64,000 bases of DNA from the NCBI GenBank assembly GCA_965649265.1, contig CBFGKC010000001.1:190613-254612 (forward strand). The letters are read 5' to 3'. Position numbers and translations under genes: made by a program. A model generated the notes under the pieces. The model ran no database searches and was not told the origin of the DNA. It saw nothing but the letters and a program-made list of their open reading frames with translations. The DNA is from a candidate division WOR-3 bacterium (GTDB lineage: Bacteria; Hydrothermota; Tepidihabitantia; B3-TA06). Below are positions 1 to 40,802 of the stretch, in pieces (within the stretch, counting starts at the first letter, position 1; each line of letters starts with the position of its first letter).

Positions 1-23
1 CGAAGAAAGTCGTGGTATACTAA
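1..23 (+). CDS. 3' end of an upstream CTD-bearing protein (partial)
   Basis: Reads ...KKVVVY* (aag aaa gtc gtg gta tac taa), the same terminal KKVVxx motif as the downstream paralogs; followed by a terminator. Confidence 0.6.
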
Positions 24-46
24 GCCGACTAACTAAAATTACCCCT

Positions 47-77
47 GAGGGGAGCCTTGTGGCTCCCCTCTTTTTTT
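47..77 (+). terminator. Rho-independent terminator
   Basis: GAGGGGAGCC-ttgt-GGCTCCCCTC 10-bp stem followed by T7. Confidence 0.9.
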
Positions 78-323: not shown

Positions 324-1472
324 GTGAAGGATTTTTGTGTTAACCTGAAGAATGTGGTCCTTCTGTGGGTGTTAACGGGGCCAGCGGTCTTTGCGACGCA
401 GTTTGGTCACGATCTATGTTCGTACGAAATAGTAGAACCCTCGCCCGACTACGTTGAAGACGGCGTTACCATCACACCGACGCTCGGGATTGCAAACCTC
501 GGCGACCACGGTGAAAGCAATGTCTGGTTTAAATTCTATACGGTAGATGTCGCGTCCGGGGATACCACTTTCGAAGATAGTGCAACGCTCGGTTTTATAG
601 GCGCTTATCCCGACTACGCAATAGTCGAGTTCTCTGATTGGACGCCTGAGGGCCGGTGTGCCAAGATCGCCGGCGGGGGGCCGTTCGTCGAACTCGAACT
701 TATTGGAATTTTGTGCTTTACGTCGGACCAGGACCGATCCAACGATACCGCGAGGGCGAACGTAACCGTGCTTTTGACCCACGATGTTGGCGTGATCGAT
801 CAGATCGGTGAACCGGGTCCGGGATACCCACCGGATCGCTATAAAGTCGGAGATACCATCATCTTCACAGCAACCGTCGAGAACTTTGGCTACAATACCG
901 AGTACGATGTCCCTGTAAAACCCGAAATCGTTGATAAGACCGCCGATCCTGATACTCTCGTCTGGCAGAACATCCAGCCTATCCAAACCCTACCCTGGCG
1001 CTGTGATACGGCTGGCGAAACATACACCGCCGATGTCGTCTTCCCGCGTTTCATCGTGCCGAGCCTTAACTGGTTGTCTAATACATGCAAAACTGAACTA
1101 GTGGGTGACTTGTGTCCGGATGACGATATCGGTCCAATTCCCTATATCCCGCCGCCTCCACCGGATACTTATGCGGTGAAAGAGAAGGCTCCAGAGGCCG
1201 AAGGGTACTCGTTAGAGGCCACAGGAAGCGCCAAAGGAGGGGCAGTCGTCTCTTTTACCATTCCTCAGGGCTTTCGGGTGAGAATAGATATCTATGATGC
1301 CACGGGTAGGTATGTACGCTCCCTCCTCGATACGTCTTGTAAGGCAGGTAGCCAAAACATGCTTTGGGACGGTTGCGATTATACAGGGCTAAAATGCCCG
1401 CGTGGGGTGTACGAGATTCGTATGCAGGCGGAGGGCTTTACAACATCAAAAAAAGTCGTAGTATTCAATTAA
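324..1472 (+). CDS. Exported CARDB/Ig-like double-module protein with FlgD-Ig/T9SS-like CTD (paralog 1)
   Basis: RBS AAGGAGG then GTG 324; hydrophobic N-terminus; HDL/HDVGV, NLG/NFG, WTPEG, CPDDD motifs; poly-Pro linker; C-terminal IYDATGR...WDG...GVY...KKVVVFN. Confidence 0.85.
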   Translation: MKDFCVNLKNVVLLWVLTGPAVFATQFGHDLCSYEIVEPSPDYVEDGVTITPTLGIANLGDHGESNVWFKFYTVDVASGDTTFEDSATLGFIGAYPDYAIVEFSDWTPEGRCAKIAGGGPFVELELIGILCFTSDQDRSNDTARANVTVLLTHDVGVIDQIGEPGPGYPPDRYKVGDTIIFTATVENFGYNTEYDVPVKPEIVDKTADPDTLVWQNIQPIQTLPWRCDTAGETYTADVVFPRFIVPSLNWLSNTCKTELVGDLCPDDDIGPIPYIPPPPPDTYAVKEKAPEAEGYSLEATGSAKGGAVVSFTIPQGFRVRIDIYDATGRYVRSLLDTSCKAGSQNMLWDGCDYTGLKCPRGVYEIRMQAEGFTTSKKVVVFN

Positions 1473-1486
1473 ACAAGGAGGAGGAG

Positions 1487-4345
1487 ATGAAGATCCTTTT
1501 GAGGTCCTTGATTTTAGTCTCGATTATCCTGCCCGTACTGGTTTACGGGTACGAGGGCGGTTCCGTTGCATGGAAGCAAGCCCCGACAGAGGCGACCGGC
1601 TGGTATTGGATGTACGATGACGCGGAGGCAACCCCTCCGTTTTCGACTCCGATAATGCCGGCTCTTCCGGCATGGGACAGCAGTATTGTAACCAACGGTG
1701 CAAAGGTCCCTCCATATGGAGATCGTCCCTATGGTTACGTTCTTCCTGACTCGTTCTGGTTCTACAGTATCTGGTATACGCCGGGGAAGAAGCTTTACAT
1801 AGGTTCAGACGGCTGGCTCACCTTTGACGCGTCGGTCGAGCCCGACGGTGCGCCTACACCTCCACAGAAAACTCCTGCAATACCGCAGCCGGACGCTCCT
1901 AACGAGCTTTTCGCGGCTCTCTGGGCCGATTACAACCCATCGCTTACTCAAGAGCCTACCAGCACAAACCGCGTGTGGTATTTATATGATTCACAGACTA
2001 AGACAATCAAAGTTCAGTGGAACCAGATCAAGAGTGCCTCCGGGCCCGGCGTTTACACGTTCCAGGCATGGCTGCAGCTCGGTGGTCAGAAATACCTCGA
2101 CCAGCTTGGTTCCTGCGGCGTAATATTCAGCCGTCACTATATTCACTTTCTTTATGGCTCGGCCACTCCGGGGTGGACCGCCGACAACGGCAAGACCGGA
2201 ATCGAGAACCAGGACGGCACCAGGGGTATACTTTACGCCGGGACGCTGGCCAACGGCCGCGTGATCCGTGCCGGTTACAAGAAGGCTTTCGCGCACGACG
2301 TTGCCGCTTACGAGTTTCTTGGGCCGGGGCCTATGGTGCTCAGGTGGACTTATCACAATGTCGCCCTCGTTCTCGCCAACCTGGGAAACGACGCTGCACA
2401 ATTTACGGCCAAAGTGGACATATACAATTTAGAAAACGACTCCCTGGTATACCACCAGTCGCTTGGAACTATCTCGTTGTCACCGGGGAGAACGGACACC
2501 TTTGCAGATCTCCCGGATTGGAGGCCGGGTGAAATCGGAAGCACTTATGAAAAGAGACTTATTGTCGATCTGGCAAACGACGAGTGCCGTCAGAACGATA
2601 CTTTGAAGAAGAATTCGTTCGTTCACTGCGACGACACGCTGGGTTACGACTGGAATTTCAACGATGTAAGCCCCGGCCCCGACTTCTTTTGGTTTACAGG
2701 TTGGGGCTACCCCAATGACTTCAGTTTTGCGTTCTACGGCGTATCCGGCGGTCTTTTCACCGGCGGGCGTGTGTATCTGGAGACAAGTTACTGGGGGTAT
2801 CATTGGATTCCTTCCAAGTTCGTCCTTTCGGAACCTACGTCGGGCTGTGGAGCGACCTCAACTGCGAACATAATCGCCACCTTTCCCATTCCAGCGTGGA
2901 CATCCAACGGTCCTAACGCCGGATGGAACAACGCAACCTTCCCCGTTTCCGGCATATACGTTCGGGGCTCGAGCCCAGGCAATATATTTGCAGGCCTTAC
3001 ACCTAAGGACGGTTCCAATTATTCGACGGTAAACCTCTACGGCATGAAAACCTGGCCTGGGGCACATGCCTGTTACCTTGGCGGTGGTCCCGGCCGCGGC
3101 GCCCTTATCAACGGTTCCTTTTCCTGGGGCGGCTATGGCGAAAACGGAAATCCCGACAACTACTATACTCCGGCTTGTGAGCTTATCGGCCATCTAGTGT
3201 TCGGCGGCTACCCGCTCTCTGTAAAGCCCGGACCCCCGAGTTTCCTTGATGAACCGCACGATATAACCGCCTGTGAAATGACTAACCCAGGCTCAGAATA
3301 TCTCGAAGACGGCGTTCCTGTTACTCCCCAGATCGCGATAGCCAATATCGGCCTCGAGAAGGAACCCGAGACCGGCTTCTTTCCGGTCAAGTTCTTTGCC
3401 GTTGATGTAGCGACAGGCGAGACCACTTTTACAGATTCATCACTCGTATCGAAAATCGGCTGGCTCGGGAATCAATCCGATGATCCGGACACGCTCAACG
3501 TTTCCATGAATTCCTGGACGCCGGAGGGGAGATGCGCGAAGGTTGCCGACGGCGGCCCTTTCGTGGAGCTTGAACTCATCGGCCTCGTTCACCTCGGCGA
3601 GGTCGGGCCTGACGAATCCGACCACTGCCCGTACAACGACACCATTCGGCGTATCGTGACCGTGCTTCTTGCCCATGACGTCGGCGTGACGAACGTAACT
3701 GTTGATCCTGATCCGAATATCTATCCCTGCAAGTACTCTGTTGGCACTTCGGTGTTTGTTACAGCGACGGTCGAAAACTTTGGAATCAATCAGGAACATG
3801 ACATCCCGGTGAAGCTTGAGATCGTAGACAAAACCGCAGATCCTGACACGCTTGTCTGGCAGAACATCCAAACAATCGCTACCCTTGACTGGCGCGGCAA
3901 CGTCCTTAATAATCCCTACACTACGGAGGTGTACTTTCCAGCCTTCACGATATCTGATCTCAGCTGGCTCGCATTTACTTGCATGACCGAGCTTGAGGGT
4001 GATCTTTGTCCTGATGATGATATCTTCAGTTGGATCTGCTGGGGAGGTGTAGAGGAGAACATCGGTATCCAGGAATATTCTCTCGAGGTGCTTTCACAAT
4101 CACTTGCCGATCACGTTGCCTTAAGATTCACGGTACCCCGCTCCTCATGGGTAAAGCTCTCCATTTTCGACATAAACGGAAGGTTCGTCCGAACCATCCA
4201 GAACGATCCACTCGATCCCGGCTACTACACGCGCGCGTGGGACGCTCGCGACAACGCGGGCCGAAAGTGCCCGGCAGGAATCTACCTCGTCCGCATGGAG
4301 TCGGAGGGGTTCAGCTCGACTAAGAAAGTCGTGATATTAAATTAA
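1487..4345 (+). CDS. Large exported multidomain protein with CARDB/Ig-like modules and CTD (paralog 2)
   Basis: RBS GGAGGAG then ATG 1487; signal peptide MKILLRSLILVSIILPVLVYG; N-terminal domain shared with paralog 3; ends IFDINGR...WDARD...AGIYLVRM...KKVVILN. Confidence 0.88.
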   Translation: MKILLRSLILVSIILPVLVYGYEGGSVAWKQAPTEATGWYWMYDDAEATPPFSTPIMPALPAWDSSIVTNGAKVPPYGDRPYGYVLPDSFWFYSIWYTPGKKLYIGSDGWLTFDASVEPDGAPTPPQKTPAIPQPDAPNELFAALWADYNPSLTQEPTSTNRVWYLYDSQTKTIKVQWNQIKSASGPGVYTFQAWLQLGGQKYLDQLGSCGVIFSRHYIHFLYGSATPGWTADNGKTGIENQDGTRGILYAGTLANGRVIRAGYKKAFAHDVAAYEFLGPGPMVLRWTYHNVALVLANLGNDAAQFTAKVDIYNLENDSLVYHQSLGTISLSPGRTDTFADLPDWRPGEIGSTYEKRLIVDLANDECRQNDTLKKNSFVHCDDTLGYDWNFNDVSPGPDFFWFTGWGYPNDFSFAFYGVSGGLFTGGRVYLETSYWGYHWIPSKFVLSEPTSGCGATSTANIIATFPIPAWTSNGPNAGWNNATFPVSGIYVRGSSPGNIFAGLTPKDGSNYSTVNLYGMKTWPGAHACYLGGGPGRGALINGSFSWGGYGENGNPDNYYTPACELIGHLVFGGYPLSVKPGPPSFLDEPHDITACEMTNPGSEYLEDGVPVTPQIAIANIGLEKEPETGFFPVKFFAVDVATGETTFTDSSLVSKIGWLGNQSDDPDTLNVSMNSWTPEGRCAKVADGGPFVELELIGLVHLGEVGPDESDHCPYNDTIRRIVTVLLAHDVGVTNVTVDPDPNIYPCKYSVGTSVFVTATVENFGINQEHDIPVKLEIVDKTADPDTLVWQNIQTIATLDWRGNVLNNPYTTEVYFPAFTISDLSWLAFTCMTELEGDLCPDDDIFSWICWGGVEENIGIQEYSLEVLSQSLADHVALRFTVPRSSWVKLSIFDINGRFVRTIQNDPLDPGYYTRAWDARDNAGRKCPAGIYLVRMESEGFSSTKKVVILN

Positions 4346-4354
4346 GGAGGAAGG

Positions 4355-7174
4355 ATGAAAAAAAATCTGTACGTATTAACGCTTTTCGTGATCGCGTTTC
4401 CCGGGTTAATCCTGGGACAGCAGGGGGGAGGAGTGGTATCATGGAAGCAAAACCCCACGGAAACCACCGGCTGGTACTGGATGTACGATAATGTTGAGTT
4501 CAAACCGCCTTTCACGCTGCCTCAAATATCCCCGATATCAGAGGTCAATTTCAAAAACATCGTGGCAGGCGAAAATCAAGTGCCTCCATACAACGACAAA
4601 TGTGTTGCCTACCCACTGCAGGATTCTTTCTGGTATTTTGGGCAGTGGTACAAGCCTGGCGATTCAATTTACATTTCGCCTGACGGCTGGGTTAGCTTTG
4701 ATCCATCTGCGGCCCCCGGGGTTCCGACACCTCCTTTGATACTTGAGCCGTTTCCCACACCGGATTTGCCAAACGCTATAATTGGAGTGCTGTGGCAAGA
4801 TAATAATCCCACATACACGGTAGAGCCTCGAAATGGAGCCGATTACGTGTATCTTTTTCACGATGCAGACAGCCGAGTACTTATCGTGGAGTGGTACGAG
4901 ATGTACAGTGCTGTCACGCCTTCGAATCATTACACTTATGAACTCCAGCTTTCAATGGGCGGACAGGATAAGCTTGTAAGTCAGGGGGATTGCGGCATCG
5001 TATTCAGTTACCACTTCATCCATCTCATTTTCGCAACATCTACCAACGGTTGGAATGCGGACAACGGCAAGGCGGGTATCGAGAACCAGAGCGGTACGGC
5101 AGGTATTTGGTATTCGGGTACTATCAGCGACGACAGGGTTGTCCGGGCAGGCTACAAGAAGGTTTTCAAGCACGACGTTGCCGCATACGAATTTCTTGAG
5201 CCCGGGCCTATGGTGCTTCGATGGACTCCTCACAATGTCGCCCTTGTCCTTGCGAACATGGGGTACGAAGCTGAACAATTCACGGCAAAGGTTGACATTT
5301 ACAATGATAACGACTCACTGGTATACCATCAGTCGCTAGGTTCGTTCTCTCTGTCACCCGGCCAGATGGATACCCTGGAGAACCTGCCGGCTTGGAGACC
5401 GGATGAAATCGGAAACGGCTATGATAAGAGGCTTATCGTAAGCCTGGCGAACGACGAGTGCCGCGGGAACGATACCTTGTGCAGGTTTTCTTTAGTTCAC
5501 TGCGACGATACGCTGCGCTATCTGTGGAACTTCGGCGATGCATCGGCCGGCATCAACATTCAGGAGACGCGGCTCGGGGCATTCTACGGAGTGGATACCG
5601 GAGTCTTATTGACGGGCGGCAGGGTGTACCTGCCTGGTGCCGATCCGGCTTATGTCAAGCCTACAATAGAGGTCTGGCAGTCGCAGTCGGGCTGCAGTGA
5701 GGCATCAACCCTGGTCTCTTCGGGAACCGCCGGGACGTACGAAGCCGGCTGGAACAAGGCATCGTTCGGAAGCACAGGGGTATGGATAAATTCCTCTAAG
5801 CCGGGTGGAATATGGGCCGCAGTTACGAGTTCGTCAAACTCGTCCGCGACCCGCGTCTGGGAATACGCAATGCGGATGCCCCCCTCCCCCGTTTCCTGCT
5901 ACCAGGGCACGGGCCCCGGCCGCGGAGGTACGTGGCTCGGCACGGCAGCGTCGGGATTCCAGTGGGGCGGGCATTCGGGGTCGTTCTACACCGCGCCGGT
6001 TGAACTCTTCGCGCACCTCGGATTCGGTGCGTACCCGCTCTGCGCGAAGCCCTCGCCTCCCTGCTACTACGACGAGCCTCATGATATAACCGCCTACGAG
6101 ATAACAAGACCCGGTGAAGATTATGCCGAAGGCGGCGTCCCTATCACGCCTGAAATAGCCATTGCTAACATCGGCCGCGAGAAGGAACCCGAAACCGGTG
6201 TCTTTCCGGTCAGGTTCATTGCAAAGAGGACCTATAACGACAGCATAGTGTTTATGGATTCGAGCCTCGTCTCCTCGATAGGCTGGCTCGGCAATCCCTC
6301 TGATGATCCGGACACGCTTCACGTCTCCATGAGTCCCTGGACGCCTGAGGGCAAATGCGACAAGGACAAGGCGAGCATCGGCGCGGAATACGAACTCATC
6401 GGCCTCGTGCAACTAGGCGAGGTCGGGCCTGACGAGTCCGACCACTGCCCGTACAACGACACCATCCGGCGCACTGTGACCGTGTTTCTTGCCCATGACG
6501 TCGGCGTGGTTGATTTAACGAGAACACCGGATCCTCCAACTCCACCCGACAATTACGAGATCGGAGCCTCGATTACTTACACCGCTACGGTCGAAAATTT
6601 TGGGGTGAATCAGGAGTACGAAATTCCTGTGCATCTTGTCGTAGTCGACAAAATCGCCAATCCAGACACGGTTGTATGGCAAAACACCCAGGCTTTAACG
6701 ACGCTTGACTGGCGCGGAAACACGCTTGGGAATCCATACACCGCTGACATCAGCTTTCCGGTCTTTACCGTTCCCTCAAATAATTGGTTGACGACGACAG
6801 TCAAGACAGAGCTTGAAGGCGACATGTGCCCAGATAACGATATCGGACCGATATTAAACATCTCATGTTGCGGAGTTGAAGAAGGAAAGAATTTGCCCAA
6901 GGTCTTTTCTCTGGACGTTCTCGACGCAATGACTCAAGGGAATACGGTTCTAAGATTTGCGGTTCCCCGCTCCTCGTGGGTGAAGCTCTCCATCTACGAC
7001 ATAAACGGCAGGTTCGTCACCAATATTCAGAACGACCCACTCGATCCCGGCTACTACACGCGCGCGTGGGACGGCCGCGACAACGCCGGCCGAAAATGCC
7101 CGGCAGGCATCTACCTCGTCCGCATGGAAGCGGAGGGATTTAAGGATTCGAAGAAGGTCGTTATTCTCAGATAA
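4355..7174 (+). CDS. Large exported multidomain protein with CARDB/Ig-like modules and CTD (paralog 3)
   Basis: RBS AAGGAGG; signal peptide; collinear with paralog 2, with long near-identical blocks; ends KKVVILR. Confidence 0.9.
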   Translation: MKKNLYVLTLFVIAFPGLILGQQGGGVVSWKQNPTETTGWYWMYDNVEFKPPFTLPQISPISEVNFKNIVAGENQVPPYNDKCVAYPLQDSFWYFGQWYKPGDSIYISPDGWVSFDPSAAPGVPTPPLILEPFPTPDLPNAIIGVLWQDNNPTYTVEPRNGADYVYLFHDADSRVLIVEWYEMYSAVTPSNHYTYELQLSMGGQDKLVSQGDCGIVFSYHFIHLIFATSTNGWNADNGKAGIENQSGTAGIWYSGTISDDRVVRAGYKKVFKHDVAAYEFLEPGPMVLRWTPHNVALVLANMGYEAEQFTAKVDIYNDNDSLVYHQSLGSFSLSPGQMDTLENLPAWRPDEIGNGYDKRLIVSLANDECRGNDTLCRFSLVHCDDTLRYLWNFGDASAGINIQETRLGAFYGVDTGVLLTGGRVYLPGADPAYVKPTIEVWQSQSGCSEASTLVSSGTAGTYEAGWNKASFGSTGVWINSSKPGGIWAAVTSSSNSSATRVWEYAMRMPPSPVSCYQGTGPGRGGTWLGTAASGFQWGGHSGSFYTAPVELFAHLGFGAYPLCAKPSPPCYYDEPHDITAYEITRPGEDYAEGGVPITPEIAIANIGREKEPETGVFPVRFIAKRTYNDSIVFMDSSLVSSIGWLGNPSDDPDTLHVSMSPWTPEGKCDKDKASIGAEYELIGLVQLGEVGPDESDHCPYNDTIRRTVTVFLAHDVGVVDLTRTPDPPTPPDNYEIGASITYTATVENFGVNQEYEIPVHLVVVDKIANPDTVVWQNTQALTTLDWRGNTLGNPYTADISFPVFTVPSNNWLTTTVKTELEGDMCPDNDIGPILNISCCGVEEGKNLPKVFSLDVLDAMTQGNTVLRFAVPRSSWVKLSIYDINGRFVTNIQNDPLDPGYYTRAWDGRDNAGRKCPAGIYLVRMEAEGFKDSKKVVILR

Positions 7175-7192
7175 GTTGTCAAATTCATAAAC

Positions 7193-7227
7193 AAGCGGTG
7201 GGCTTATCTAAAAAGCCAACCGCTTTT
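7193..7227 (+). terminator. Probable Rho-independent terminator
   Basis: AAGCGGTGGGCTT...AAGCCAACCGCTT followed by Ts, just after the paralog 3 stop. Confidence 0.7.
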
Positions 7228-7329: not shown

Positions 7330-7376
7330 TAAAAGTCGTGTTGAGGAAGAAAAAAAACCCATTAAGGAGGGGAAGA

Positions 7377-8513
7377 ATGAAACGTTTTTGTGCTGAAATG
7401 GGCCTCTTTTGGGTCACTTTTGGGGTACTTTTGACCCATTTCACGGCTCACGCAACCGAGCATGATCTTACGTGCCATGCAATAATACAACCGTCCGGTA
7501 AATACGTACTTGCAGACTCCGCGATCACCCCGAAGCTAGGTGTGGCCAATCTGGGCACATCGCCCGAGTATAACTTTTATGTGCATCTTCTCTCTCTCGA
7601 TACCCTGTTCGGTGATACCGTTTACGCCGAGAGCGTGCTCGTAAACTCAATAAATGCGTATCCTGATTCAATCGAGGTCGAGTTGCCTGATTGGACGCCG
7701 GAGGGGCTTTGCAAGGATTCGTTCTCGAGGTATTACAATATTCAAGTATATGAAACGATAGGTGTTACTCGCATGATTACGGACGAGGACCACTCAAACG
7801 ATACTCTAAGAGATACCGTAACCTCGTTATGGATGCATAATGTGGGGGTGACGGATCTTGAAATAGATCCTGACCCTACGACCCCACCGGATCGCTATTC
7901 TGTCGGTGCTTGCATTACCTTCACTGCTACAGTTGAAAATTTTGGTTTTAGCCCTGAGCTTGATGTTCCAATAAGACTAGAGGTTTGGGACAGGACTGCT
8001 AGTCCGGATACGCTGGTCTGGCAGAACACACAGCTCATAAGTGTTCTTAACTGGTGCGGCGATACATCAGGGAATGTGTGTACAGTAGAGGTGTTTTTTC
8101 CTGTCTTCACTATACCATCGGATAATGCGTTTCTTGTTGTTAGTCAGTCCATTATGGAAGACGATCAGTGTTTAACGGATAATGAAATTGTTCGTTACAT
8201 CGGCCATGAGTGTGAGGCTTTAATAGAGGGAAAAAACATAAAACCGGCACTCGACATTTCAACAAACATCGGAAATAACGAAAATAAAATTCTCTTTGCA
8301 ATCAGCAACCCTTGCAGCGTACAGCTCGACGTTTTTGACGCCTCGGGACGCTTTGTGTGTAACCTTTACAATGACCCATGCTCCGCTGGTGCCCACTCGC
8401 TCACCTGGGATGGAAAGGACTTAAGGGGTCGTAAGGTGCCCTCCGGGGCGTACTTTGTAAGAATGAAGGCGGGTGAGTATAATAAATGCGGGAAACTTTT
8501 AATCGTCCGTTAG
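7377..8513 (+). CDS. Exported double-module protein with CTD (paralog 4)
   Basis: RBS TAAGGAGG; signal peptide ending AHA; HDL, WTPEG, HNVGV, ENFG, PDTLVWQN motifs; FlgD-like tail. Confidence 0.87.
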   Translation: MKRFCAEMGLFWVTFGVLLTHFTAHATEHDLTCHAIIQPSGKYVLADSAITPKLGVANLGTSPEYNFYVHLLSLDTLFGDTVYAESVLVNSINAYPDSIEVELPDWTPEGLCKDSFSRYYNIQVYETIGVTRMITDEDHSNDTLRDTVTSLWMHNVGVTDLEIDPDPTTPPDRYSVGACITFTATVENFGFSPELDVPIRLEVWDRTASPDTLVWQNTQLISVLNWCGDTSGNVCTVEVFFPVFTIPSDNAFLVVSQSIMEDDQCLTDNEIVRYIGHECEALIEGKNIKPALDISTNIGNNENKILFAISNPCSVQLDVFDASGRFVCNLYNDPCSAGAHSLTWDGKDLRGRKVPSGAYFVRMKAGEYNKCGKLLIVR

Positions 8514-8521
8514 GAGGAACA

Positions 8522-9316
8522 TTGAAACACACTTCGCTGGTTCTGTCGGTCGTGGTCTTTACCTTGGTCTCGTGTACGCCGCAGGATTTGATAAACGAAG
8601 AAATTCTTGTGCCTTCGATGGCCTTCGTGCTGGCCGATTCAAGCTATACGCCGCTAGTTAAAATAACTAATGAGAGCAAGGATGAGGCGAGGGACTTCTG
8701 GGTTAAGCTCACAATAGCAAATGCTTCGACAGGCGCAATAGAATATAGAGACAGTGTAAATGTAGCATTCCTGGGAAGTTCCTCCTCTTGCAACATTGAG
8801 TTCGCACAATGGACACCAGGGGAGTCGATCGAGGTCGATACAATCGGTAATAGATACAACTTATCCGTGATCTCCGATCTGACCTCGGATGTCGATACTT
8901 CTTATATGTCGGTCGCAAGCCTCTGGAAGAAGGATGCGAGGATTACGAATATCGCGTTGAGACCTTTTCACGAAGACGGTAGATATCTTGAGGGAGCGGT
9001 GGTCACGATCACTGCGACCGCCCAGAACGTGGGTTTCGGCAGGGAACAAGAAATACCTGTTGAATGCAGGTTAATCGATAAGACAGCCGATCCGGACAGC
9101 GTGGTCTGGGAAGGCACACTTTCTCTCTCTGTGCTGGACTGGATGGGTAATTCCACGGGTGCTGCGTTTACAGGCGAGGTCACATTCCCGGCATGGACCG
9201 TTCCGTCGCTCAACTGGCTTGCGATATATTGCATAACCCGGCTCGAGGGAGACTTGTGTCCTGCCAATGATACACTCGTAGTAAGCATAAACACGGGTGT
9301 TGCAGAAATACCTTAA
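8522..9316 (+). CDS. Predicted lipoprotein paralog with the double module but no CTD (paralog 5)
   Basis: RBS AGGAGG then TTG 8522; lipobox LVSC; WTPG, DKTADPDSVVW, LEGDLCPAND motifs; stops right after the GVAE linker. Confidence 0.8.
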   Translation: MKHTSLVLSVVVFTLVSCTPQDLINEEILVPSMAFVLADSSYTPLVKITNESKDEARDFWVKLTIANASTGAIEYRDSVNVAFLGSSSSCNIEFAQWTPGESIEVDTIGNRYNLSVISDLTSDVDTSYMSVASLWKKDARITNIALRPFHEDGRYLEGAVVTITATAQNVGFGREQEIPVECRLIDKTADPDSVVWEGTLSLSVLDWMGNSTGAAFTGEVTFPAWTVPSLNWLAIYCITRLEGDLCPANDTLVVSINTGVAEIP

Positions 9317-9397
9317 ACGAGAAAAAACATGGGTAAATTTAACCGGAACATCGTGAATACCTTACGGCGGTTCCGGTTGTATAATCAGGGAGGAGAA

Positions 9398-10498
9398 ATG
9401 AAACCCTTAATCGTAATAATCGGCTCAATCCTCACAGTATCTCTGGCTTATGCAGGACCCGACCTGGCCTGCGAGGCGGTACTCGAACCTCCAGGCGACT
9501 ACTGCCTTGCTGACTCTACAATCACGCCCAGGCTCAAGATATCCAACCTCGGCGACCAGGGGGCCTCGAACTTTTTTGTCAAGCTCGTAATAGTAGACCC
9601 CTGGCTGACTGGAGATACAGTGTATCTTGACAGCGTACACGTCGGATATATAGACGCATTACCAGATTATAAAGAAGTCGAGTTCCCGGAATGGACGCCT
9701 GAAGGTCATTGCGCCAAGCTTGCAGACGGCGGACCTTTCGTGGAATACGAGCTTTCGGGTATGGCATGCCTAGGCACAGACGCGGATTATTCAAACGACA
9801 CGCTCCGAAAAACATCAACTTGCTTGCTCGCTCATGATGTTGGGGTGACTGATCTCTTTTGTGACAAGGGCCCTACTCATCCCCCAGACTATTACGAACC
9901 GGGAACAGAGTTAATATTCACCGCCACGATTGAGAATTTTGGCTACGACCTTGAATATGATGTTCCTGTCAGATTGGAAATTTGGGACAAGAGCGCCGAA
10001 CCTGACACGGAAGTATACCAGAATATCCAACTCATATCAAAACTCAACTGGCGCGGAGATTCTCTAGGCGATCCATACACAGCCAATATCGTCTTTCCGG
10101 TCTTCAGGGTTCCTAGCTTCAAATGTTTTCAGATTACCTGCAAGACCGAGCTTGAAGAAGATATGTGTCCTGACGATGACATTGGTCCTCAGGGTAGGAT
10201 CAACGATCCGGGTGGTACGGAGGAAGATCTCAACAAACTTTCTTTTGCCCTTGGTTCAGTAATTCCAAATGATATTACGTTCACCCTCCCCCTCCCCATG
10301 TGGGTCCGCCTTGATGTCTACGACGCATCTGGTGGATTCATCCGCAATCTCTACAACGACCCGTGCCCGGCGGGTTCGCACTCGCTCTCATGGAACGGAA
10401 GAGACTCACGCGGGACAATGGTATCATCGGGTGCATATTTCATCAAGATGCAGGCGGGAACGTTTACCGCCTCGTCGAAACTCATTGTTATCAGATAG
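9398..10498 (+). CDS. Exported double-module protein with CTD (paralog 6)
   Basis: RBS GGAGGAG then ATG 9398; signal peptide ending AYA; same modules; FlgD-like tail WNGRD...SGAYFIKM...KLIVIR. Confidence 0.87.
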   Translation: MKPLIVIIGSILTVSLAYAGPDLACEAVLEPPGDYCLADSTITPRLKISNLGDQGASNFFVKLVIVDPWLTGDTVYLDSVHVGYIDALPDYKEVEFPEWTPEGHCAKLADGGPFVEYELSGMACLGTDADYSNDTLRKTSTCLLAHDVGVTDLFCDKGPTHPPDYYEPGTELIFTATIENFGYDLEYDVPVRLEIWDKSAEPDTEVYQNIQLISKLNWRGDSLGDPYTANIVFPVFRVPSFKCFQITCKTELEEDMCPDDDIGPQGRINDPGGTEEDLNKLSFALGSVIPNDITFTLPLPMWVRLDVYDASGGFIRNLYNDPCPAGSHSLSWNGRDSRGTMVSSGAYFIKMQAGTFTASSKLIVIR

Positions 10499-10578: not shown

Positions 10579-10606
10579 TTGACAGGAGGCTTTACGCGGT
10601 TAGAAT
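10579..10606 (+). promoter_or_regulatory. sigma-70-type promoter (N16)
   Basis: TTGACA-N16-TAGAAT. Confidence 0.75.
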
Positions 10607-10639: not shown

Positions 10640-11812
10640 GTGAAGAAACTCGCGCTCCCCGTTCTGGGAGTATTGATTTTATCGTTATCAGTCTCAGCAA
10701 AAACAAACCTTTCGACGCTTGAAGAAAAAGTGGCCCGTCAGCCCAACAACGCACGCGCAGTCTATGAACTTACAAGAGAATACTGCAGGAATGACTCCGC
10801 CGTGCAGGCAATAGACAGCTGGAAACGTCTCGCCGCGCTCGACACGGTTCTCGCGGCGGATGTCTTTTTAAGAGCAAAGGTAGCAGTGTATCTGGGGCTC
10901 GAGCCCTTTTTCCCCGAGGTCATCTCGGATTCTTCTATGGAAGCCGCGCGGTTCAGCCAGGACGGAAAGAAGATTTGTTTTCAAGGTCTCTGGAACTCCC
11001 AGTTCAATGTGGGAACCATGAATACTTTTGGTGGCGGAGAGTTTCACTATATGACAAAAACGCAGGATGGATGCTACGGACCTTGTTTTGCAGGATCTTA
11101 CGATCGATTTCTCTACTTTCGCGACATACGGGGAGAAACCAGCGCCACAACCCAGCTCATTTATAACAATACCGCCGGGGCCGGCGAGGAAGTAATCTAT
11201 ACCAACCCTGTGCAAGGGCTCGAATCGCTTGACTGGATCTCCGATGACAAGCCTATTCTCTTTTCCTATATCTCAATAGATACAAAAACGTGGGAGATAG
11301 GTCTTTACGATAAAAATAAAGGCGAACTTAAAGAGCTTACGAAGAATTATTTCAGTGACAAGCACCCCAGGTACTCAAGCGACGGTAAATACATCGTGTA
11401 TATCGACGACAGGCTGATAGACTGGGAAATCCGCATAATGGACACGAAGGGAAAATTTGTCGAGAACGTGGCTCCTGGTTCGGGCAGGGATATGTTACCC
11501 GCTTTTGGTGCCAACGACAGTAAAGTAGTTTTTTGTTCGGATCGAAACGACGGGAAACAGTTCGACATTTTTGTTTATGACCGGAAGACCAAAGACGTGA
11601 TACCGGTCACGTACGATCCCGGCCAGGACGCTTTTCCCGATTTTTCAAAAGACGGCAACTGGATAGTTTTTACGTCAACCAGAGGTCAGGACGGTACGTC
11701 CAAGCCATATCTGGTTTCACTTAATCAACCCATCAGTATAGAAAGTTTATTGGGAAAGATAAACTCTAAAGAATCTCAAGAGGGAGGTTCTAATGGTACT
11801 CAATCACCGTAG
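10640..11812 (+). CDS. Exported TPR + PD40/TolB-like beta-propeller protein
   Basis: Signal peptide; helical TPR-like N-terminus (QPNNARAVYEL); repeated PxFSxDGxxIVF motifs. Confidence 0.85.
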   Translation: MKKLALPVLGVLILSLSVSAKTNLSTLEEKVARQPNNARAVYELTREYCRNDSAVQAIDSWKRLAALDTVLAADVFLRAKVAVYLGLEPFFPEVISDSSMEAARFSQDGKKICFQGLWNSQFNVGTMNTFGGGEFHYMTKTQDGCYGPCFAGSYDRFLYFRDIRGETSATTQLIYNNTAGAGEEVIYTNPVQGLESLDWISDDKPILFSYISIDTKTWEIGLYDKNKGELKELTKNYFSDKHPRYSSDGKYIVYIDDRLIDWEIRIMDTKGKFVENVAPGSGRDMLPAFGANDSKVVFCSDRNDGKQFDIFVYDRKTKDVIPVTYDPGQDAFPDFSKDGNWIVFTSTRGQDGTSKPYLVSLNQPISIESLLGKINSKESQEGGSNGTQSP

Positions 11813-14800
11813 GCGAGCCGGATTTGCGGTAATTTCTTTTCTGGCTCTTTTAGTCCCCGGGTTAGTGTTTGCTAACCAGCTTAGGTTTCAACTTGAGCTT
11901 GTACCGTCGGAAATAAATCTGAGGAGTAGTCGAGGATACACCGAGATTGGATTTGAAGGGGCGCGCTATCTTGCCGAACCGGGTTTTCCGTGGGTTCCTT
12001 TCATGACAAAGCAATATGTCTTGCCCGCAGGGACGCGCGTTAAATCAGTGAGACTTGAAGTGTTGAAGCGCAGTAATATTACTCTTACCACGCCGGTATA
12101 TCCGGCGCAGCCTTTAAGACCTATAAGCGTTTCAAAACAAGTCGAATTCGTTGACCCGGATTTAGATGTATACTCGTCTCGCGAATATCAACCCGACTTT
12201 GGAGCGGTACTTCTTTACGAGGGGGTGCTTGACGGAATCAGAATTGCAGATGTGGCAGTTCATCCAATTCGTTACGTCCCGGGCTTGAATCAATTAGAGG
12301 TTGCCGAAAAGATGCTTCTCGTTATTGACTGCGAGAACGACCCGTCATACATCCCCCGATCGTATCTGTCAAATAACCAGAGGGAAAATCTTTCTGAACG
12401 TCTTGAAAGCATCGCAGATAACCCAGAGAATATCTATGTAGGTTCGAATTACTCCGCACTCCCCAAGGAATACAGGCACGCAATACTCACAACTTCCACT
12501 CTCAAAACGGCTTTTCAACCTCTTGCGACCTGGAACACCAGGAGAGGGGTAAGAGACACAATCGTTACACTCGAGAACATGGCCTCATACCAGGGCTCGG
12601 ACATGGCGGAAAAAATCCGCAACTTCGTCATATTCGCCCACGAGAACTGGGGGCTTGAATATTTCCTTATAGGAGGTGACGCAACTCTCATTCCCACAAG
12701 GGATTGCTTCGTCACAGGGGTTGACGGCAACCACTATGACACCATTCCGACTGATATGTATTTCGGATGTCTTAACGGGGACTGGGACGCGAACAACAAC
12801 GGTGTTTACGGCGAAATGAGCGATAATGCCGATTTGTTGGCAGAGGTGGCGGTAGGACGCATCAGCGTTACAGATGTCGCCCAGGTAACGGAATTCGTGA
12901 ATAAGGTTATCAGGTACGAAACCAATCCGCCGGAAGACTATTCCCACAAACTAATGCTGCCTTCAGAAGTGTTGTGGACCGATCCATATTATCCGGGCGA
13001 TAGAACTAACGACTCAATCGCGTTTTTTGCGCCCTCAGGCACCATGGTTGAAAAGCTTTACGAGACGAGTGGAAAGCTGTCGAGTTCGATTATGAGGGAC
13101 TCCATTAACGCCGGAGTCGGCCTGGCTCATCAGATGGCTCACGGCAACATATGGGTTATTTCCGCCGCCTCGGATTACTTTACTTCGGTAATGGCCAGTG
13201 AATTAGTCAACGGCACCAAAGTCGCCGTATACAGTTCCATAGCATGTCTTGTAGGTGCGTTCGACTACAACTCCTGTCTGGTCGAGGAATTCCAGGCAGC
13301 GCCCGGAGGCGGTACCGTGGCCTGGGTGGGCAACTCGCGGTACGGGTGGGGAATGCCGCCTTATCAAGGGCCGTCTGAGGATCTCGATATTTCTTTCTTC
13401 AAGTCGATCTACGGGCAAGCGAATCCCAGCGTGGGCGATGCCCTGGTTGATGCCAAGGATGCAAACGTGGAAAACTGGGGAGGAATGGATGTGGGAGCAT
13501 GGTGTATATATGAATTGAATTTGCATGGAGATCCGGCCATGCCCGTTCACTACCGGGAGATTTCGGAATTCACAGTAGATTATCCTGACCTTGTTGTCGA
13601 AGGTTCGCAGGGGTTTCCCGTAAAAGTCACATCCCAGGCAGGATATCCTGTAAACGGGATGCTTGTTTGTGCCAGGCAGGGTAATTCAATGTATGCATGG
13701 GCCAAGACCAATTCGAGCGGCGACGCGGTTCTCAATATCAGTCCAGCGGTGGGGATAATGAGTCTTTCCGTAAGCGGATCCAATCACAAATTCTGGAGTA
13801 ATGACGGAATTGTCGTGGGCCCCAGAATTCCACAGATAGTGCTCACGCCCGATACGGTATGGATAGATACCAAAACGCAATCACTCAACTCCAGTTTTCG
13901 TATAATTAATTCGGGAACCGATACCTTGATAATAAGCAGTATTGCACCCTATAACTCGCCGTGGATAGGTTCGCTTTCCTCAACCCAGGCCAAAATTTTG
14001 CCCGACGGTTATTTAATAGTCACTTTCGCGGCGGATACTGCAGGATTGAGTGACAACATTTACTCAGGCGCGATTCAAATACTGAGCAATGACCCCTCTT
14101 CCCCTTCTAATGAACCCGTCAAGCTCATAAAGGGCGACTGGCCTGATATCGATATCAATCCGTCGGAGCTCGTGTTTGATATGCCTGCCGGCGGGGAACT
14201 TGAGGATTACTCCACTATCTATAATAAAGGCAGGGCCGAGCTCGTTGTATCCGGAGCAACCACATCCACCGCATGGATTTCAGGGTTTGAGCCGAAGGAT
14301 TTCAATCTTGCTGCCGGTGATTCAACAACCCTCGATGTGGTGATAGATACCACCGGTATGGGGTTCGGAACTTTTGACGGGAAAATCACGTTTCCGACAA
14401 ACGATCCGGATGAGAATCCGAAACAATACATGGTGCGCCTTGTCATGGGTGAACCGGACATTAAAACCTCTCCCGATACCCTTGATTTCTTTGTTTCCTA
14501 TGAAACTCCCACAAGGAACGTAACAAGCGCCAACATGACCGTAAAAAATCAGGGAAACCGGCCGCTTTTCGTATCAAACATGGTCCCATCTACTCAGTGG
14601 ATTGAGATTGCAGAGCCAAAGGCGTTTGAATTGTCACCGCAATCGTCTAAAACCGTGAAAGTTTCAGTAAACCCCCAGGATCTCAGGCAGGGTGTCTACA
14701 ACGCTTACATAACCGTTTCCTCGAACGATCTGGATGAGCCTTCAAAAAGAGTTCCGGTTCTTCTTCTTATCGAGGAGTCGCCTCCCAAGATCGCTTGCGC

Positions 14801-15386
14801 TCCTGATACAGTGATCGTCGACAGGGAAACGATGCACGGCTATTTCTGGGTACAAAATAGCGGAATGCGCGACTTGATTGTCTCCAACATTTCGTCGGAG
14901 ACCCCCTGGATATACGGGGCATGGCCGAAAGGATTTACCGTAAGGGGACAGGACAGCGCCCAGGTTACGGTCATTGGTGATCCCTCAAAAATTTCAAGCG
15001 GGCCTAAGGTTGGAGCAATAAAAATCGTATCAAACGATACTCATGATCCTCAAAAGACTCTTCCGGTCAGGATAGGGGCGTCATCCGCCGTCGCCGAGGG
15101 TGTGCCGAAGGTTTTCGAGTTGTCTCAGGTATCTCCCAATCCCGCATCGGGACGATGCCTCGTGAGCTATGCTGCCCCGCGTGAAGCAGATGTACTTCTT
15201 GCCGTGTACGATGTTTCGGGCAAGAGAGTGAAGGTTATCGAAAGAGGCAAGGTTGTGCCCGGTTATTACCATTATCTCTGGACTGGTGAAGATGATCTCG
15301 GGAGAGCTCTTCCGCAAGGCGTATACCTCATAAGAATGGAAAGTCCCGATTACAAGGCGACCCAGAGAATTATTCTTTTACGCTGA
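11793..15386 (+). CDS. Gingipain-like peptidase C25 with propeptide, Ig-like repeats and CTD
   Basis: C25 propeptide-like N-terminus (PGFPWVP), LIGGD, TDMYF, VGRI, catalytic AHG and SIAC, LHGDPA; about five NxG...SND Ig repeats; PNP...VYDVSG...GVY tail. Confidence 0.9.
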   Translation: MVLNHRRRAGFAVISFLALLVPGLVFANQLRFQLELVPSEINLRSSRGYTEIGFEGARYLAEPGFPWVPFMTKQYVLPAGTRVKSVRLEVLKRSNITLTTPVYPAQPLRPISVSKQVEFVDPDLDVYSSREYQPDFGAVLLYEGVLDGIRIADVAVHPIRYVPGLNQLEVAEKMLLVIDCENDPSYIPRSYLSNNQRENLSERLESIADNPENIYVGSNYSALPKEYRHAILTTSTLKTAFQPLATWNTRRGVRDTIVTLENMASYQGSDMAEKIRNFVIFAHENWGLEYFLIGGDATLIPTRDCFVTGVDGNHYDTIPTDMYFGCLNGDWDANNNGVYGEMSDNADLLAEVAVGRISVTDVAQVTEFVNKVIRYETNPPEDYSHKLMLPSEVLWTDPYYPGDRTNDSIAFFAPSGTMVEKLYETSGKLSSSIMRDSINAGVGLAHQMAHGNIWVISAASDYFTSVMASELVNGTKVAVYSSIACLVGAFDYNSCLVEEFQAAPGGGTVAWVGNSRYGWGMPPYQGPSEDLDISFFKSIYGQANPSVGDALVDAKDANVENWGGMDVGAWCIYELNLHGDPAMPVHYREISEFTVDYPDLVVEGSQGFPVKVTSQAGYPVNGMLVCARQGNSMYAWAKTNSSGDAVLNISPAVGIMSLSVSGSNHKFWSNDGIVVGPRIPQIVLTPDTVWIDTKTQSLNSSFRIINSGTDTLIISSIAPYNSPWIGSLSSTQAKILPDGYLIVTFAADTAGLSDNIYSGAIQILSNDPSSPSNEPVKLIKGDWPDIDINPSELVFDMPAGGELEDYSTIYNKGRAELVVSGATTSTAWISGFEPKDFNLAAGDSTTLDVVIDTTGMGFGTFDGKITFPTNDPDENPKQYMVRLVMGEPDIKTSPDTLDFFVSYETPTRNVTSANMTVKNQGNRPLFVSNMVPSTQWIEIAEPKAFELSPQSSKTVKVSVNPQDLRQGVYNAYITVSSNDLDEPSKRVPVLLLIEESPPKIACAPDTVIVDRETMHGYFWVQNSGMRDLIVSNISSETPWIYGAWPKGFTVRGQDSAQVTVIGDPSKISSGPKVGAIKIVSNDTHDPQKTLPVRIGASSAVAEGVPKVFELSQVSPNPASGRCLVSYAAPREADVLLAVYDVSGKRVKVIERGKVVPGYYHYLWTGEDDLGRALPQGVYLIRMESPDYKATQRIILLR

Positions 15387-40801: not shown

Positions 40802-40802
40802 G

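Follow-up and report, generated by a model that had tools for sequence, protein, structure and literature searches.

A tandem array of paralogous CARDB-pair proteins with T9SS-type tails beside a gingipain-like peptidase gene in a WOR-3/TA06-like bacterium

Introduction

The 64,000-nucleotide stretch of DNA analysed here (the window) opens with a run of mutually similar genes followed by a beta-propeller gene and a gene for a C25-family cysteine peptidase, which raises the question of what the repeated proteins are, how they would leave the cell, and whether the neighbouring peptidase acts on them. An earlier note, made from the sequence letters, had proposed that these proteins may serve as adhesins, an S-layer or fibres, exported through a T9SS-like route and possibly matured by the C25 enzyme. 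The reading that we favour is that the array probably encodes surface binding proteins specific to this lineage, which would leave a WOR-3/TA06-like cell as cargo of an export route of T9SS type (SprA/PorV/PorU). Such a surface-protein family would be nothing out of the ordinary; what is unusual is the host, from a little-studied lineage.

Eight paralogous genes in tandem

When one core was searched with phmmer against all ORFs of at least 80 aa in the genome, exactly the eight array members were retrieved (E 9e-36 to 3e-185), apart from a weak extra match outside the array (E 1e-11). All eight genes are co-directional (Table 1). The six that the earlier note had placed within the window, in short and long versions, are borne out by the ORF listing, and the seventh that it had suspected is real, its translated frame ending in KKVVVY and a stop at about window base 23; the eighth lies further upstream. 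The translated stretch PEGSLVAPLFF recurs, near-identical, 3' of both upstream long genes, including the first long gene of the array. Matches to a sigma-70-like promoter were overall not above those in shuffled sequence (21 versus 15.0 ± 4.3), and the region's best is listed in Table 1. The family would have grown through tandem duplication.

Table 1. Features of the array and its neighbours. Positions are those of the window unless a contig coordinate (C1) is given; gene starts of the window proteins follow the gene calls of the database.
Feature	Position	Strand	Details
Eighth paralog, long	C1:184151-187009	+	further upstream, outside the window
Upstream long paralog, 3' end	1..23	+	start at G000:C1:187767; N gap just before window base 1; core E 1.2e-69
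Terminator-like hairpin, intrinsic type	47..70	+	10-bp stem with 8 GC pairs, then T run; 3' of the upstream long gene
g1, short paralog	324..1472	+	382 aa; signal peptide, CARDB pair core (405-1127), T9SS type-A/FlgD_ig tail; FlgD_ig 36.9 bits
g2, long paralog	1487..4345	+	952 aa; signal peptide, NIDO-like, CARDB, jelly roll, CARDB pair core (3254-4021), tail; FlgD_ig 40.2 bits; TIGR04183 27.4 bits (cut-off 23)
g3, long paralog	4355..7174	+	939 aa; the one modelled (AlphaFold models and fold matches); NIDO-like 4427-5170, CARDB 5171-5509, lectin-like jelly roll 5540-6040, CARDB pair core 6077-6841, CTD about 6902-7171
g4, short paralog	7377..8513	+	378 aa; core 7458-8183, then tail; FlgD_ig 38.7 bits; CARDB sub-threshold, 16.3 bits
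g5, paralog without tail	8522..9316	+	264 aa; lipobox (…FTLVSC); core 8579-9271, E 8.9e-36
g6, short paralog	9329..10498	+	389 aa, or 366 aa with start at ATG 9398; core 9455-10180, then tail; FlgD_ig 36.6 bits; CARDB sub-threshold, 18.3 bits
Sigma-70-like promoter match, region's best	10579..10606	+	gap before the PD40 gene; 11/12 hexamer positions
PD40 (TolB-like) beta-propeller protein	10640..11812	+	signal peptide, helical N-terminal segment, no sorting tail; PD40 80.7 bits
Gingipain-like C25 cysteine peptidase	11793..15386	+	1197 aa; probable propeptide, catalytic domain, Ig-like domains (DUF1573 / choice-of-anchor D), T9SS tail

The common core is a divergent CARDB pair

All eight paralogs have in common a core of 240 residues. 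An alignment of the eight cores spans 258 columns, of which 33 are invariant, and identity to the first sequence is 35-56%. This likeness is far above chance, and the motifs WTP, NDT, TATVENFG, DKTADPDT, and GDxCPxDD, picked out in the earlier note, are among the invariant columns. That note recognised no named family for the core, and here it has to be corrected: the core is not a new fold but two divergent CARDB modules in tandem. For two of the CARDB modules the top structural match is 3idu_A (Z 12.6, rmsd 1.9, 101 residues aligned; Z 11.9, 106 residues aligned, 23% identity). Among the distant matches of the core profile, nine of 17 repeat proteins exceed the Pfam CARDB cut-off, and hhalign aligned the core profile (A1) to one Pfam-CARDB repeat protein, P0049, with a probability of 92% (E 6.4e-7) over residues 240-438, a range that covers P0049's Pfam CARDB stretch (352-430). 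Searched directly with Pfam CARDB (PF07705), the window proteins stay below its cut-off of 22.7 bits, g6 and g4 scoring best (Table 1). An acidic Asn/Asp-rich motif closes each CARDB module of the array proteins, and the short forms consist of the CARDB pair alone between the signal peptide and the tail.

Additional domains of the long forms

In the long forms this pair is preceded by three more domains, one NIDO-like at the N-terminus, then a third CARDB module, then a jelly roll of lectin-like type, as seen in AlphaFold models of g3 (pLDDT 85.1 and 81.6) and in profile comparisons. A profile of the N-domain (A5) aligned in hhalign with residues 21-205 of the bacterial protein P0178 (probability 99.3%), which carries a Pfam NIDO domain at residues 78-134 (37.5 bits, cut-off 25), and 16 of the 30 Atlas matches of the N-domain belong to clusters that contain NIDO (best score 0.92). 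Pfam NIDO (PF06119) itself matched nothing on the window proteins and nothing in their own genome at E <= 1; it matched weakly in two of 27 family members (best E 0.043). The structural hit lists of the 400-residue model that includes the N-domain were filled by the CARDB domain. For the middle domain, a jelly roll, matches included the lectin-like domain of Cwp84 (Z 10.7) and capsid jelly rolls (Z about 11), and the Atlas lead is Lectin_like (0.90). Judging by these folds, the extra domains are most likely distal ligand-binding heads on a common stalk, and what they would bind is probably glycans or other polymers.

Sorting tails and the route of export

Read by eye, every N-terminus is basic and then hydrophobic, as in a Sec signal peptide, e.g., MKKNLYVLTLFVIAFPGLILGQ. 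At the other end, seven of the eight paralogs carry a C-terminal sorting domain of FlgD_ig / T9SS type-A kind. The Pfam cut-off of FlgD_ig (27 bits) is exceeded by each of the five tailed array genes of the window (36.6-43.9 bits), by the C25 gene (31.9 bits), and by the upstream array gene (55.4 bits), so that every tailed member with a complete tail exceeds it. TIGR04183 (cut-off 23) is exceeded by g2 (Table 1), g3 (23.9), and the C25 gene (27.3); g1 (16.6), g4 (18.5), and g6 (15.8) fall below. The modelled tail matches the CTDs of PorU (6za2_B, Z 10.6, 90 residues aligned) and PorZ (5m11, Z 8.8). The sorting tail that the earlier note described as shared is present in five window array genes and the C25 gene but absent from g5 and the PD40 protein.

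The tail-less g5 is the lipoprotein member that had been pointed out earlier, with an L-V-S-C lipobox that we read by eye. It has merely 14 residues past its core and matched nothing in Pfam or NCBIfam, and its branch length is 1.9 against a median of 0.21. The fetched loci contain 34 ORFs with a core; in 31 of them the core is followed by 102-117 residues, room enough for a tail and its linker, another two are interrupted by a gap or contig end, and only g5 has no tail. We take g5 to be a derived, fast-evolving, tail-less lipoprotein copy specific to this genome. One could also see in a lipobox-bearing member next to a C25 protease the sign of a type V pilus-like fibre, whose lipoprotein subunits are activated by a gingipain-type protease. 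We find this scarcely credible, as g5 stands alone among the 34 ORFs and occurs in this genome only, the other array members carry T9SS tails, and the folds are CARDB-like with no pilin in the fold lists; type V pilins are not known to have T9SS tails.

The export machinery that such tails call for is encoded in part. SprA is present (333.9 bits, cut-off 200), as is PorU on contig 10, away from the array (434.4 bits against a cut-off of 420 for NF033707), and a barrel of the PorV/PorQ family (179.9 bits, cut-off 90; 94.1 against 250 for the PorV equivalog); FlgD_ig has 76 matches genome-wide. PorK/L/M/N (GldK/L/M/N) gave no match in this 96% complete genome with TIGR03525, TIGR03513, TIGR03517, TIGR03523, and PF12081, three of which five models were also silent in control genomes, and divergent homologs could still exist. 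The proposed T9SS-like route is supported as far as SprA, PorU, the PorV/PorQ family, and type-A-like CTDs are concerned, but not for PorK/L/M/N; should the genome really lack these, it would have something other than a canonical T9SS.

On the reading that we favour, the array proteins would be exported by Sec to the periplasm, where their C-terminal domains would be recognised, and would pass through SprA with a PorV-family shuttle. The tail would then be cut off by the genome's true PorU, and the proteins attached to the surface or released.

The neighbouring PD40 and C25 genes

The PD40 gene and the C25 gene are closely coupled, the start of the latter overlapping the stop of the former by 20 nt. 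The PD40 protein had been described as a TPR/TolB-like propeller. The propeller is confirmed by PD40 (Table 1), but TPR models gave no match at E <= 0.1 in the helical N-terminal part, and the TolB equivalog (TIGR02800) scores 70.7 bits, far below its cut-off of 343.15. Against PorE (NF052230) the PD40 gene scores 12 bits (E 0.046), and it is not among the genome's matches at E <= 0.1; the gene most like PorE lies on contig 12 (246 bits, cut-off 600).

The C25 protein matches Peptidase_C25 (PF01364) with 201.6 bits (cut-off 23) and DUF1573 with 56.1 bits, and a profile of its orthologs matches RgpB (E 2.2e-21). Counted from the alignment, H450 and C485 fall on His211 and Cys244 of RgpB (1cvr), which we take to be the catalytic residues, and both are invariant in five orthologs. 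Propeptide_C25 reaches 20.5 bits (cut-off 22), and a match to the Kgp prodomain (5mun, E 1.3e-6) was obtained with the profile of the orthologs. With its probable propeptide, aligned His/Cys dyad, and own sorting tail, the protein classes by sequence as a gingipain-like cargo protease, and it is probably active, judging by this propeptide and the dyad.

The earlier note had pointed out that the sortase PorU is itself a C25-family protein. The neighbouring enzyme was rejected as a candidate for it: against the PorU model the C25 protein scores 53.9 bits, far under the cut-off of 420, and since the genome has a true PorU elsewhere, on another contig, the neighbouring C25 is not the sortase. That it might instead be a second, dedicated PorU-type sortase for the array tails is very improbable, even granting the weak matches to PorU and PorU2 (50.5 bits, cut-off 450), given its probable gingipain-type propeptide. 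The C25 enzyme would rather be a co-exported protease that may process the array proteins or act beside them.

Distribution, synteny, and two other readings of the locus

Homologs of the array family (E <= 1e-30) were found in 14 of the 272 genomes of the phylum. As the earlier note had expected, the family is restricted by lineage, 13 of these 14 genomes belonging to one order: the present genome, nine of the ten genomes of family f1, the single genome of f2, and both of f3. Within it, paralogs cluster by lineage. The relatives are labelled WOR-3 or TA06 in the sources.

The linkage of the array to the PD40 and C25 genes, which had been named as one of two points on which the earlier reading could fail, holds in relatives, the three adjoining in six genomes of the family (G000, the present one, G001, G002, G007, G008, and G010). 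One may ask whether the array and C25 form a gingipain-adhesin-type proteolytic surface complex, in which the protease cleaves the CARDB proteins and stays bound while they capture protein or polymer food substrates. Beyond this adjacency and the probable activity of the enzyme, in genome G018, from another family of the class, two long NIDO/core-like proteins are encoded directly upstream of a C25 homolog (602 bits) that is the closest one outside family f1, and the protein P0180 is a C25 peptidase that also has MAM-like domains and a region to which the profile of the N-domain matches (E about 1e-7). Nevertheless, 38 of the 41 genomes of the class have gingipain-like C25 genes, with up to 11 matches each and mostly without the array, and adjacency alone is therefore no proof of a dedicated maturation role. 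Moreover, in G006 the array and the PD40-C25 pair lie on different contigs, with no core gene in the 1.7 kb upstream of the pair, and in family f3 no C25 follows the array. All told, we consider such a complex quite unlikely.

On the other side of the array, the first long gene is adjoined by a divergent GT2-GT4-LPG_synthase_TM (flippase-like)-YfhO cluster, both in the present genome and in all seven relatives for which this flank is available. This, too, allows another reading, namely that long and short forms co-assemble via their common CARDB pair into an S-layer-like glycoprotein coat, comparable to the TfsA/TfsB pair of Tannerella forsythia, that is glycosylated by the GT2/flippase-like/YfhO cluster. 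Tandem long-short gene pairs are present in most relatives, each of the two upstream long genes is followed by a strong terminator, a frequent feature of abundant structural genes, and the GT2 is similar along its entire length to polyprenyl-phosphate glycosyltransferases (ArnC 84.6, AglJ 84.3, PgfS 71.6 bits, all below cut-off). The conserved neighbourhood, however, is that of one family and extends to the unrelated sucCD, and may be inherited gene order only. The sequon D[ST][AILVMT], which we take over from Bacteroidota and which may not hold for this lineage, is more frequent than in composition shuffles (e.g., 7 versus 1.7 ± 1.2), but the enrichment stems from conserved paralogous positions. 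Foldseek lists the archaeal S-layer protein 7ptp, yet as one of hundreds of generic multi-Ig matches. A coat of this kind is thus unlikely in our judgement, and surface binding proteins remain our preferred account of the array.

Comparison with known systems

The array pair resembles CARDB (PF07705; 3idu, PF1109 of Pyrococcus furiosus) in fold and through its profile links to Pfam-CARDB repeat proteins. Unlike CARDB in general, it is a fixed, conserved two-module unit with motifs of its own, found in essentially one order. The N-domain is likewise akin to NIDO (nidogen-like, PF06119) by profile alignment and Atlas neighbours, but differs in that the window proteins have no Pfam match.

With type-A cargo of the Bacteroidota T9SS (TIGR04183 / PF18962 Por_Secre_tail; FlgD_ig-like CTDs), the array proteins have in common the signal peptide and, at the C-terminus, a beta-sandwich some 80 residues long. 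In contrast to that system, the host is WOR-3/TA06-like, going by the source names of its relatives, and PorK/L/M/N were not detected with the five models used.

The S-layer glycoproteins TfsA and TfsB are encoded by adjacent genes and are glycosylated. By description the array is like them, as large multi-Ig T9SS cargo from adjacent genes with glycosylation genes nearby. TfsA and TfsB of Tannerella forsythia are named as T9SS cargo in a passage of PMC8869499.

The closest parallel for the neighbouring enzyme is with the gingipains RgpB and Kgp of Porphyromonas gingivalis, with which it shares a C25 catalytic domain, an aligned His/Cys dyad, a probable propeptide, and a T9SS tail, and the locus as a whole is like the gingipain-adhesin setting in that a C25 peptidase is encoded beside non-catalytic surface proteins. 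It differs from the gingipains in having Ig-like DUF1573 / choice-of-anchor D domains instead of haemagglutinin/adhesin domains, and in the PD40 propeller gene immediately 5' of the peptidase gene.

Gene content and extent of the array

The window (G000:C1:190613-254612) opens with a 15.4-kb region of eight co-directional genes on the plus strand: six paralogs (g1 to g6), a gene encoding a PD40-repeat protein, and a gene encoding a C25 peptidase. Their positions, with starts taken from the gene calls of the database itself, are listed below together with a gene cluster found just 5' of the window.

Positions of the array genes, the adjoining genes and the upstream cluster (window coordinates unless a fetched locus, L001, or contig of the source genome, G000, is named)
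Feature	Position	Strand	Description
g1	324-1472	+	382 aa, array paralog
g2	1487-4345	+	952 aa, array paralog
g3	4355-7174	+	939 aa, array paralog
g4	7377-8513	+	378 aa, array paralog
g5	8522-9316	+	264 aa, array paralog
g6	9329-10498	+	389 aa, array paralog
PD40 gene	10640-11812	+	3' of array
C25 peptidase gene	11793-15386	+	start overlaps PD40 stop by 20 nt
GT2, GT4, LPG_synthase_TM, YfhO cluster	L001:5997-11634 (= G000:C1:177996-183633)	-	just 5' of window

An earlier note on this DNA, made from the sequence alone, had proposed six paralogs and a probable seventh ending at position 23. The array is real and larger than that, with eight members including two long genes upstream of the window. 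The nearer of these, a long paralog running from C1:187767, contains an N gap immediately ahead of the window and ends in ...KKVVVY* at about window base 23, where the note had placed the end of its seventh gene; the other lies at C1:184151-187009. When a single core (the two-module stretch shared by the paralogs) was searched with phmmer against all ORFs of at least 80 aa in the source genome, the eight array members were retrieved (E 9e-36 to 3e-185), along with a lone weak outsider on contig 12 (E 1e-11). The eight aligned cores are 35-56% identical to the first sequence and share 33 invariant columns, among which fall the motifs by which the note had recognized the paralogy. Short members consist of a signal peptide, a CARDB pair and a C-terminal tail, and long members of a signal peptide, a NIDO-like domain, a CARDB domain, a lectin-like jelly roll, the CARDB pair and the tail.

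Identity of the core and of the long-form domains

The long paralog g3 was modelled as two segments, an alignment of relatives being supplied for each (residues 1-400, pLDDT 85.1, pTM 0.81; residues 395-939, pLDDT 81.6, pTM 0.48). In an all-against-all structural search, the best match for the module at residues 271-382 was 3idu, the CARDB domain of Pyrococcus PF1109 (Z 12.6, rmsd 1.9, 101 aligned); it also ranked first with the opening module of the core (Z 11.9, 106 aligned, 23% identity), whose set of Ig-like matches is shared by the second core module. The window's own proteins score only 16.3-18.3 bits against Pfam CARDB (cut-off 22.7). A profile of the eight cores searched against 1.84 billion representatives gave 313 matches at E <= 0.001, and complete or nearly complete two-module matches were found essentially only in the 40 best rows, the window's own proteins among them. 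The weaker matches are multi-repeat proteins, 9 of the 17 scanned having CARDB above cut-off, and an hhalign comparison of the core with one such CARDB repeat protein gave a probability of 92% over a range covering its Pfam CARDB repeat. Because of the structural matches, the CARDB-bearing repeat proteins and the hhalign result, we conclude that the core consists of two divergent CARDB modules in a fixed pair. The earlier note had recognized no named family for it, a statement that no longer holds.

No Pfam model matches the N-terminal domain of g3 (residues 25-272) itself, and Pfam NIDO matches weakly in only 2 of 27 family members. A profile of this domain reaches protein P0178, which has a Pfam NIDO match of 37.5 bits, and hhalign pairs the two with a probability of 99.3% across the Pfam NIDO stretch. 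A language-model Atlas search with the domain placed 16 of 30 matches in NIDO-bearing clusters (best score 0.92). These profile and embedding matches suggest that the N-terminal domain of the long form is NIDO-like. The match lists for the 1-400 model say nothing on its fold, because they were filled by the CARDB domain. Sequence searches of solved structures with g3 and with a profile of its N-terminal part returned only FlgD, the PorU tail and chance matches, with none for the N-terminal domain. The middle domain (residues 396-562) is a jelly roll that matches capsid jelly rolls at Z about 11 and, with a Z of 10.7 over 139 aligned residues, the lectin-like domain of Cwp84; its Atlas lead is Lectin_like (0.90). 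Foldseek with both g3 models gave generic matches to strings of Ig-like domains (integrin, GH2, alpha-2-macroglobulin, transglutaminase). A pilus assembled from these proteins is an unlikely reading of the locus.

Sorting tails and predicted export

The earlier note had described a tail shared across the region. This stood for g1, g2, g3, g4 and g6, which pass Pfam FlgD_ig (cut-off 27 bits) at 36.6-43.9, and for the C25 protein (31.9), the upstream long gene also scoring 55.4; it did not stand for g5 or the PD40 protein. The NCBIfam model for T9SS type-A tails, TIGR04183 (cut-off 23), is passed by g2, g3 and the C25 protein, while g1, g4 and g6 fall below it. The final 90 residues of the C-terminal g3 model match the PorU CTD (6za2_B, Z 10.6, 90 aligned, 21% identity), as well as the PorZ CTD (5m11, Z 8.8) and FlgD (3osv, Z 8.6).

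The reading frame of g5 ends 14 residues past the core, and its N-terminus (...FTLVSC) contains a lipobox, judged by eye, in agreement with the lipoprotein member that the note had listed. We considered g5 as a conserved anchor subunit and rejected this, as a tail-less copy occurs only in the source genome among 34 core-bearing ORFs. A Gln often lies at or beside the likely signal-peptidase site, again by eye, in g1, g3, the C25 protein and many relatives (P0009-P0028), for instance …LILGQQGG, …VFATQFGH, …VFANQLRF and …GFAQTHDL. A Gln near this site recalls what is reportedly called the "Bacteroidetes Q-rule".

The source genome (2.74 Mb, 27 contigs, 96% complete) has 76 FlgD_ig matches. It encodes a SprA homolog (333.9 bits, cut-off 200), a true PorU on contig 10 that bears its own tail (434.4, cut-off 420), a PorV/PorQ-family barrel (179.9, cut-off 90; PorV equivalog just 94.1 against 250) and a PorE-like OmpA protein (246, cut-off 600). 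GldK, GldL, GldM and GldN were not detected in this genome; three of these models were silent in control genomes too, and the proteins are therefore described as not detected rather than absent. The best PorE-like gene lies on contig 12, followed by a gene for a beta-propeller protein and a third gene encoding the 1176-aa tailed protein that is the weak outside match to the core (region L027:1814-9018 = G000:C12:27813-35017). Two ORFs, at L001:2-1714 (= G000:C1:171941-173713, minus strand) and in a 626-aa frame at G000:C18:13058-14731, combine a PorV/PorQ-like barrel (83.4, cut-off 90), CarboxypepD_reg and a PorE-like OmpA C-terminal domain; the PorV and PorE models both match in two frames, an unusual joining of a T9SS shuttle-like barrel to a peptidoglycan anchor.

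A literature search found no paper joining WOR-3 and type IX secretion, and the best 15 of 328 matches to a wider search comprised only P. gingivalis and T9SS work without WOR-3, TA06 or CARDB. According to the introduction of PMC11285876, several other FCB phyla may possess a T9SS; WOR-3 is not listed there.

The C25 and PD40 genes

The C25 protein contains Peptidase_C25 (201.6 bits), DUF1573/choice-of-anchor D Ig-like domains and the tail. A profile of five orthologs matches gingipain R (1cvr) at E 2.2e-21 and the Kgp prodomain (5mun) at E 1.3e-6. H450 and C485 align to the catalytic residues His211 and Cys244 of RgpB and are invariant in all five orthologs. Another possibility is that this gene encodes the sortase. 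Its product reaches only 53.9 bits with the PorU model against a cut-off of 420, and this low score, along with the gingipain and prodomain matches, makes a sortase unlikely; we therefore regard the C25 protein as a gingipain-like cargo protease.

The neighbouring protein, which the note had called a TPR/TolB-like propeller, has PD40 repeats (80.7 bits), which bears out the propeller; its helical N-terminus has no TPR match, and it fails both the TolB and PorE models. The idea that it is half of a split PorE, the other half being the upstream OmpA-domain ORF, was rejected because a better PorE-like gene exists on contig 12 and the PD40 protein is not among the PorE matches. Complex prediction for C25 (30-620) and PD40 (22-380) with ortholog alignments scored 0.00, which counts neither way on binding.

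Elsewhere in the window, the minus-strand gene at 38516-40816 combines an M14 zinc carboxypeptidase with an InhA-like MAM domain and probably encodes a further secreted protease. Two genes on opposite strands, 1.8 kb apart, each encode one half of class I fumarate hydratase (Fumerase_C at 47015-47620, minus; Fumerase at 49413-50300, plus). Rfam across the whole window found only two tRNAs, both outside the array region.

Distribution and gene order

Of the 272 genomes available for the phylum, 14 contain the core at E <= 1e-30: the source genome, 9 of 10 in family f1, the single genome of f2, both of f3, and G117, which has 8% contamination. The relatives' proteins carry the source names "candidate division WOR-3 bacterium" and "candidate division TA06 bacterium". 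A search of genome contigs with the core alignment gave 36 pattern matches, none from a relative.

The array is followed by the PD40 and C25 genes in the source genome and in relatives G001, G002, G007, G008 and G010, so the linkage that the note had anticipated does recur. All of these except G002 have sucC next; in the window, sucC, sucD and three 2-oxoacid:ferredoxin oxidoreductase subunits occupy 15509-20287 (plus strand). In G005 the PD40 gene follows the array and the contig then ends, and contig ends also interrupt the region in G003 and G009. In G006 the array and the PD40-C25 pair are on separate contigs, the 1.7 kb 5' of the pair holding no core gene, and G013 (f3) has PD40 without C25. 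G018 belongs to another family; there, two long NIDO/core-like proteins are encoded immediately 5' of the C25 homolog that is closest outside f1 (602 bits), and no PD40 gene intervenes.

A gingipain-adhesin-type complex of array proteins and peptidase is live but unproven. This adjacency is consistent with it; of 41 related genomes, 38 have gingipain-like C25 genes (up to 11 matches each), mostly without the array, which counts against a dedicated pairing. Among the class relatives G014-G040, many have 3-11 C25 matches, and the array-bearing family has one or two.

The upstream cluster (GT2, GT4, flippase-like LPG_synthase_TM and the GT-C enzyme YfhO), adjacent to and divergent from the first long gene, is present in the source genome and in 7 of 7 relatives with the flank available (identity about 70% for GT2, 54-74% for YfhO). 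Its GT2 resembles the polyprenyl-phosphate glycosyltransferases ArnC, AglJ and PgfS at 72-85 bits, all below cut-offs. The cluster may glycosylate surface proteins or glycolipids, and an S-layer-like glycoprotein coat is likewise a live but unproven reading of the array. The unrelated sucCD genes are also syntenic, and part of the conservation may therefore be inherited gene order. The Bacteroidota O-glycosylation sequon is D[ST][AILVMT]. Such motifs exceed composition shuffles in array proteins encoded at, e.g., 324-10498 (for example 6 against 1.5 +/- 1.2 and 9 against 3.0 +/- 1.7), and fall at conserved module ends (NDT[LIA], PDT[LV]), the paralogs not being independent counts.

Evolution and transcription

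A tree of 34 cores groups this genus's short forms in one clade (support 98/99) and places those of another genus as the sister group of the long forms from that other genus, a pattern which fits lineage-wise duplication or concerted evolution. The g5 branch length is 1.9 (median 0.21), and DNA identity among the paralogs is patchy, from 60 to 92%. A strong terminator-like hairpin occupies window 47-70, 3' of the nearer upstream long gene, and the same translated stretch recurs 3' of the farther one. The best promoter-like site is directly 5' of the PD40 gene (10579-10606), promoter-like sites overall not being above shuffles. Given the hairpin and this site, the array is probably several transcription units. 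A search of sequencing runs returned no RNA run, only DNA runs of one study (shares 0.12, 0.06 and 0.04).

Interpretation

The best-supported reading is an array of lineage-specific surface binding proteins with predicted T9SS-type export, in which the CARDB pair would serve as a common stalk and the long forms would carry NIDO-like and lectin-like heads. We also considered a putative self-contained WOR-3-type coat system comprising the GT2/GT4/flippase-like/YfhO cluster, the CARDB proteins, PD40 and C25. Here long and short forms would co-assemble through the CARDB pair into a glycosylated S-layer-like coat, be exported by a minimal T9SS (SprA, PorV, PorU) lacking PorKLMN, and be trimmed by the dedicated C25 protease; we regard this full scheme as improbable.

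The array family is probably a major surface component in one order of uncultured WOR-3/TA06-like bacteria, and it therefore bears on cell attachment, feeding and phage recognition. The source genome combines many T9SS-type tails with SprA, PorU and a PorV-family protein, yet PorK/L/M/N were not detected; if truly motor-less, it would bear on whether tail-dependent export is possible in the absence of the known motor. On current evidence the array is worth annotating but not surprising. All of its domain types and its export logic are already known, and the novelty lies in the family and in the lineage that hosts it.
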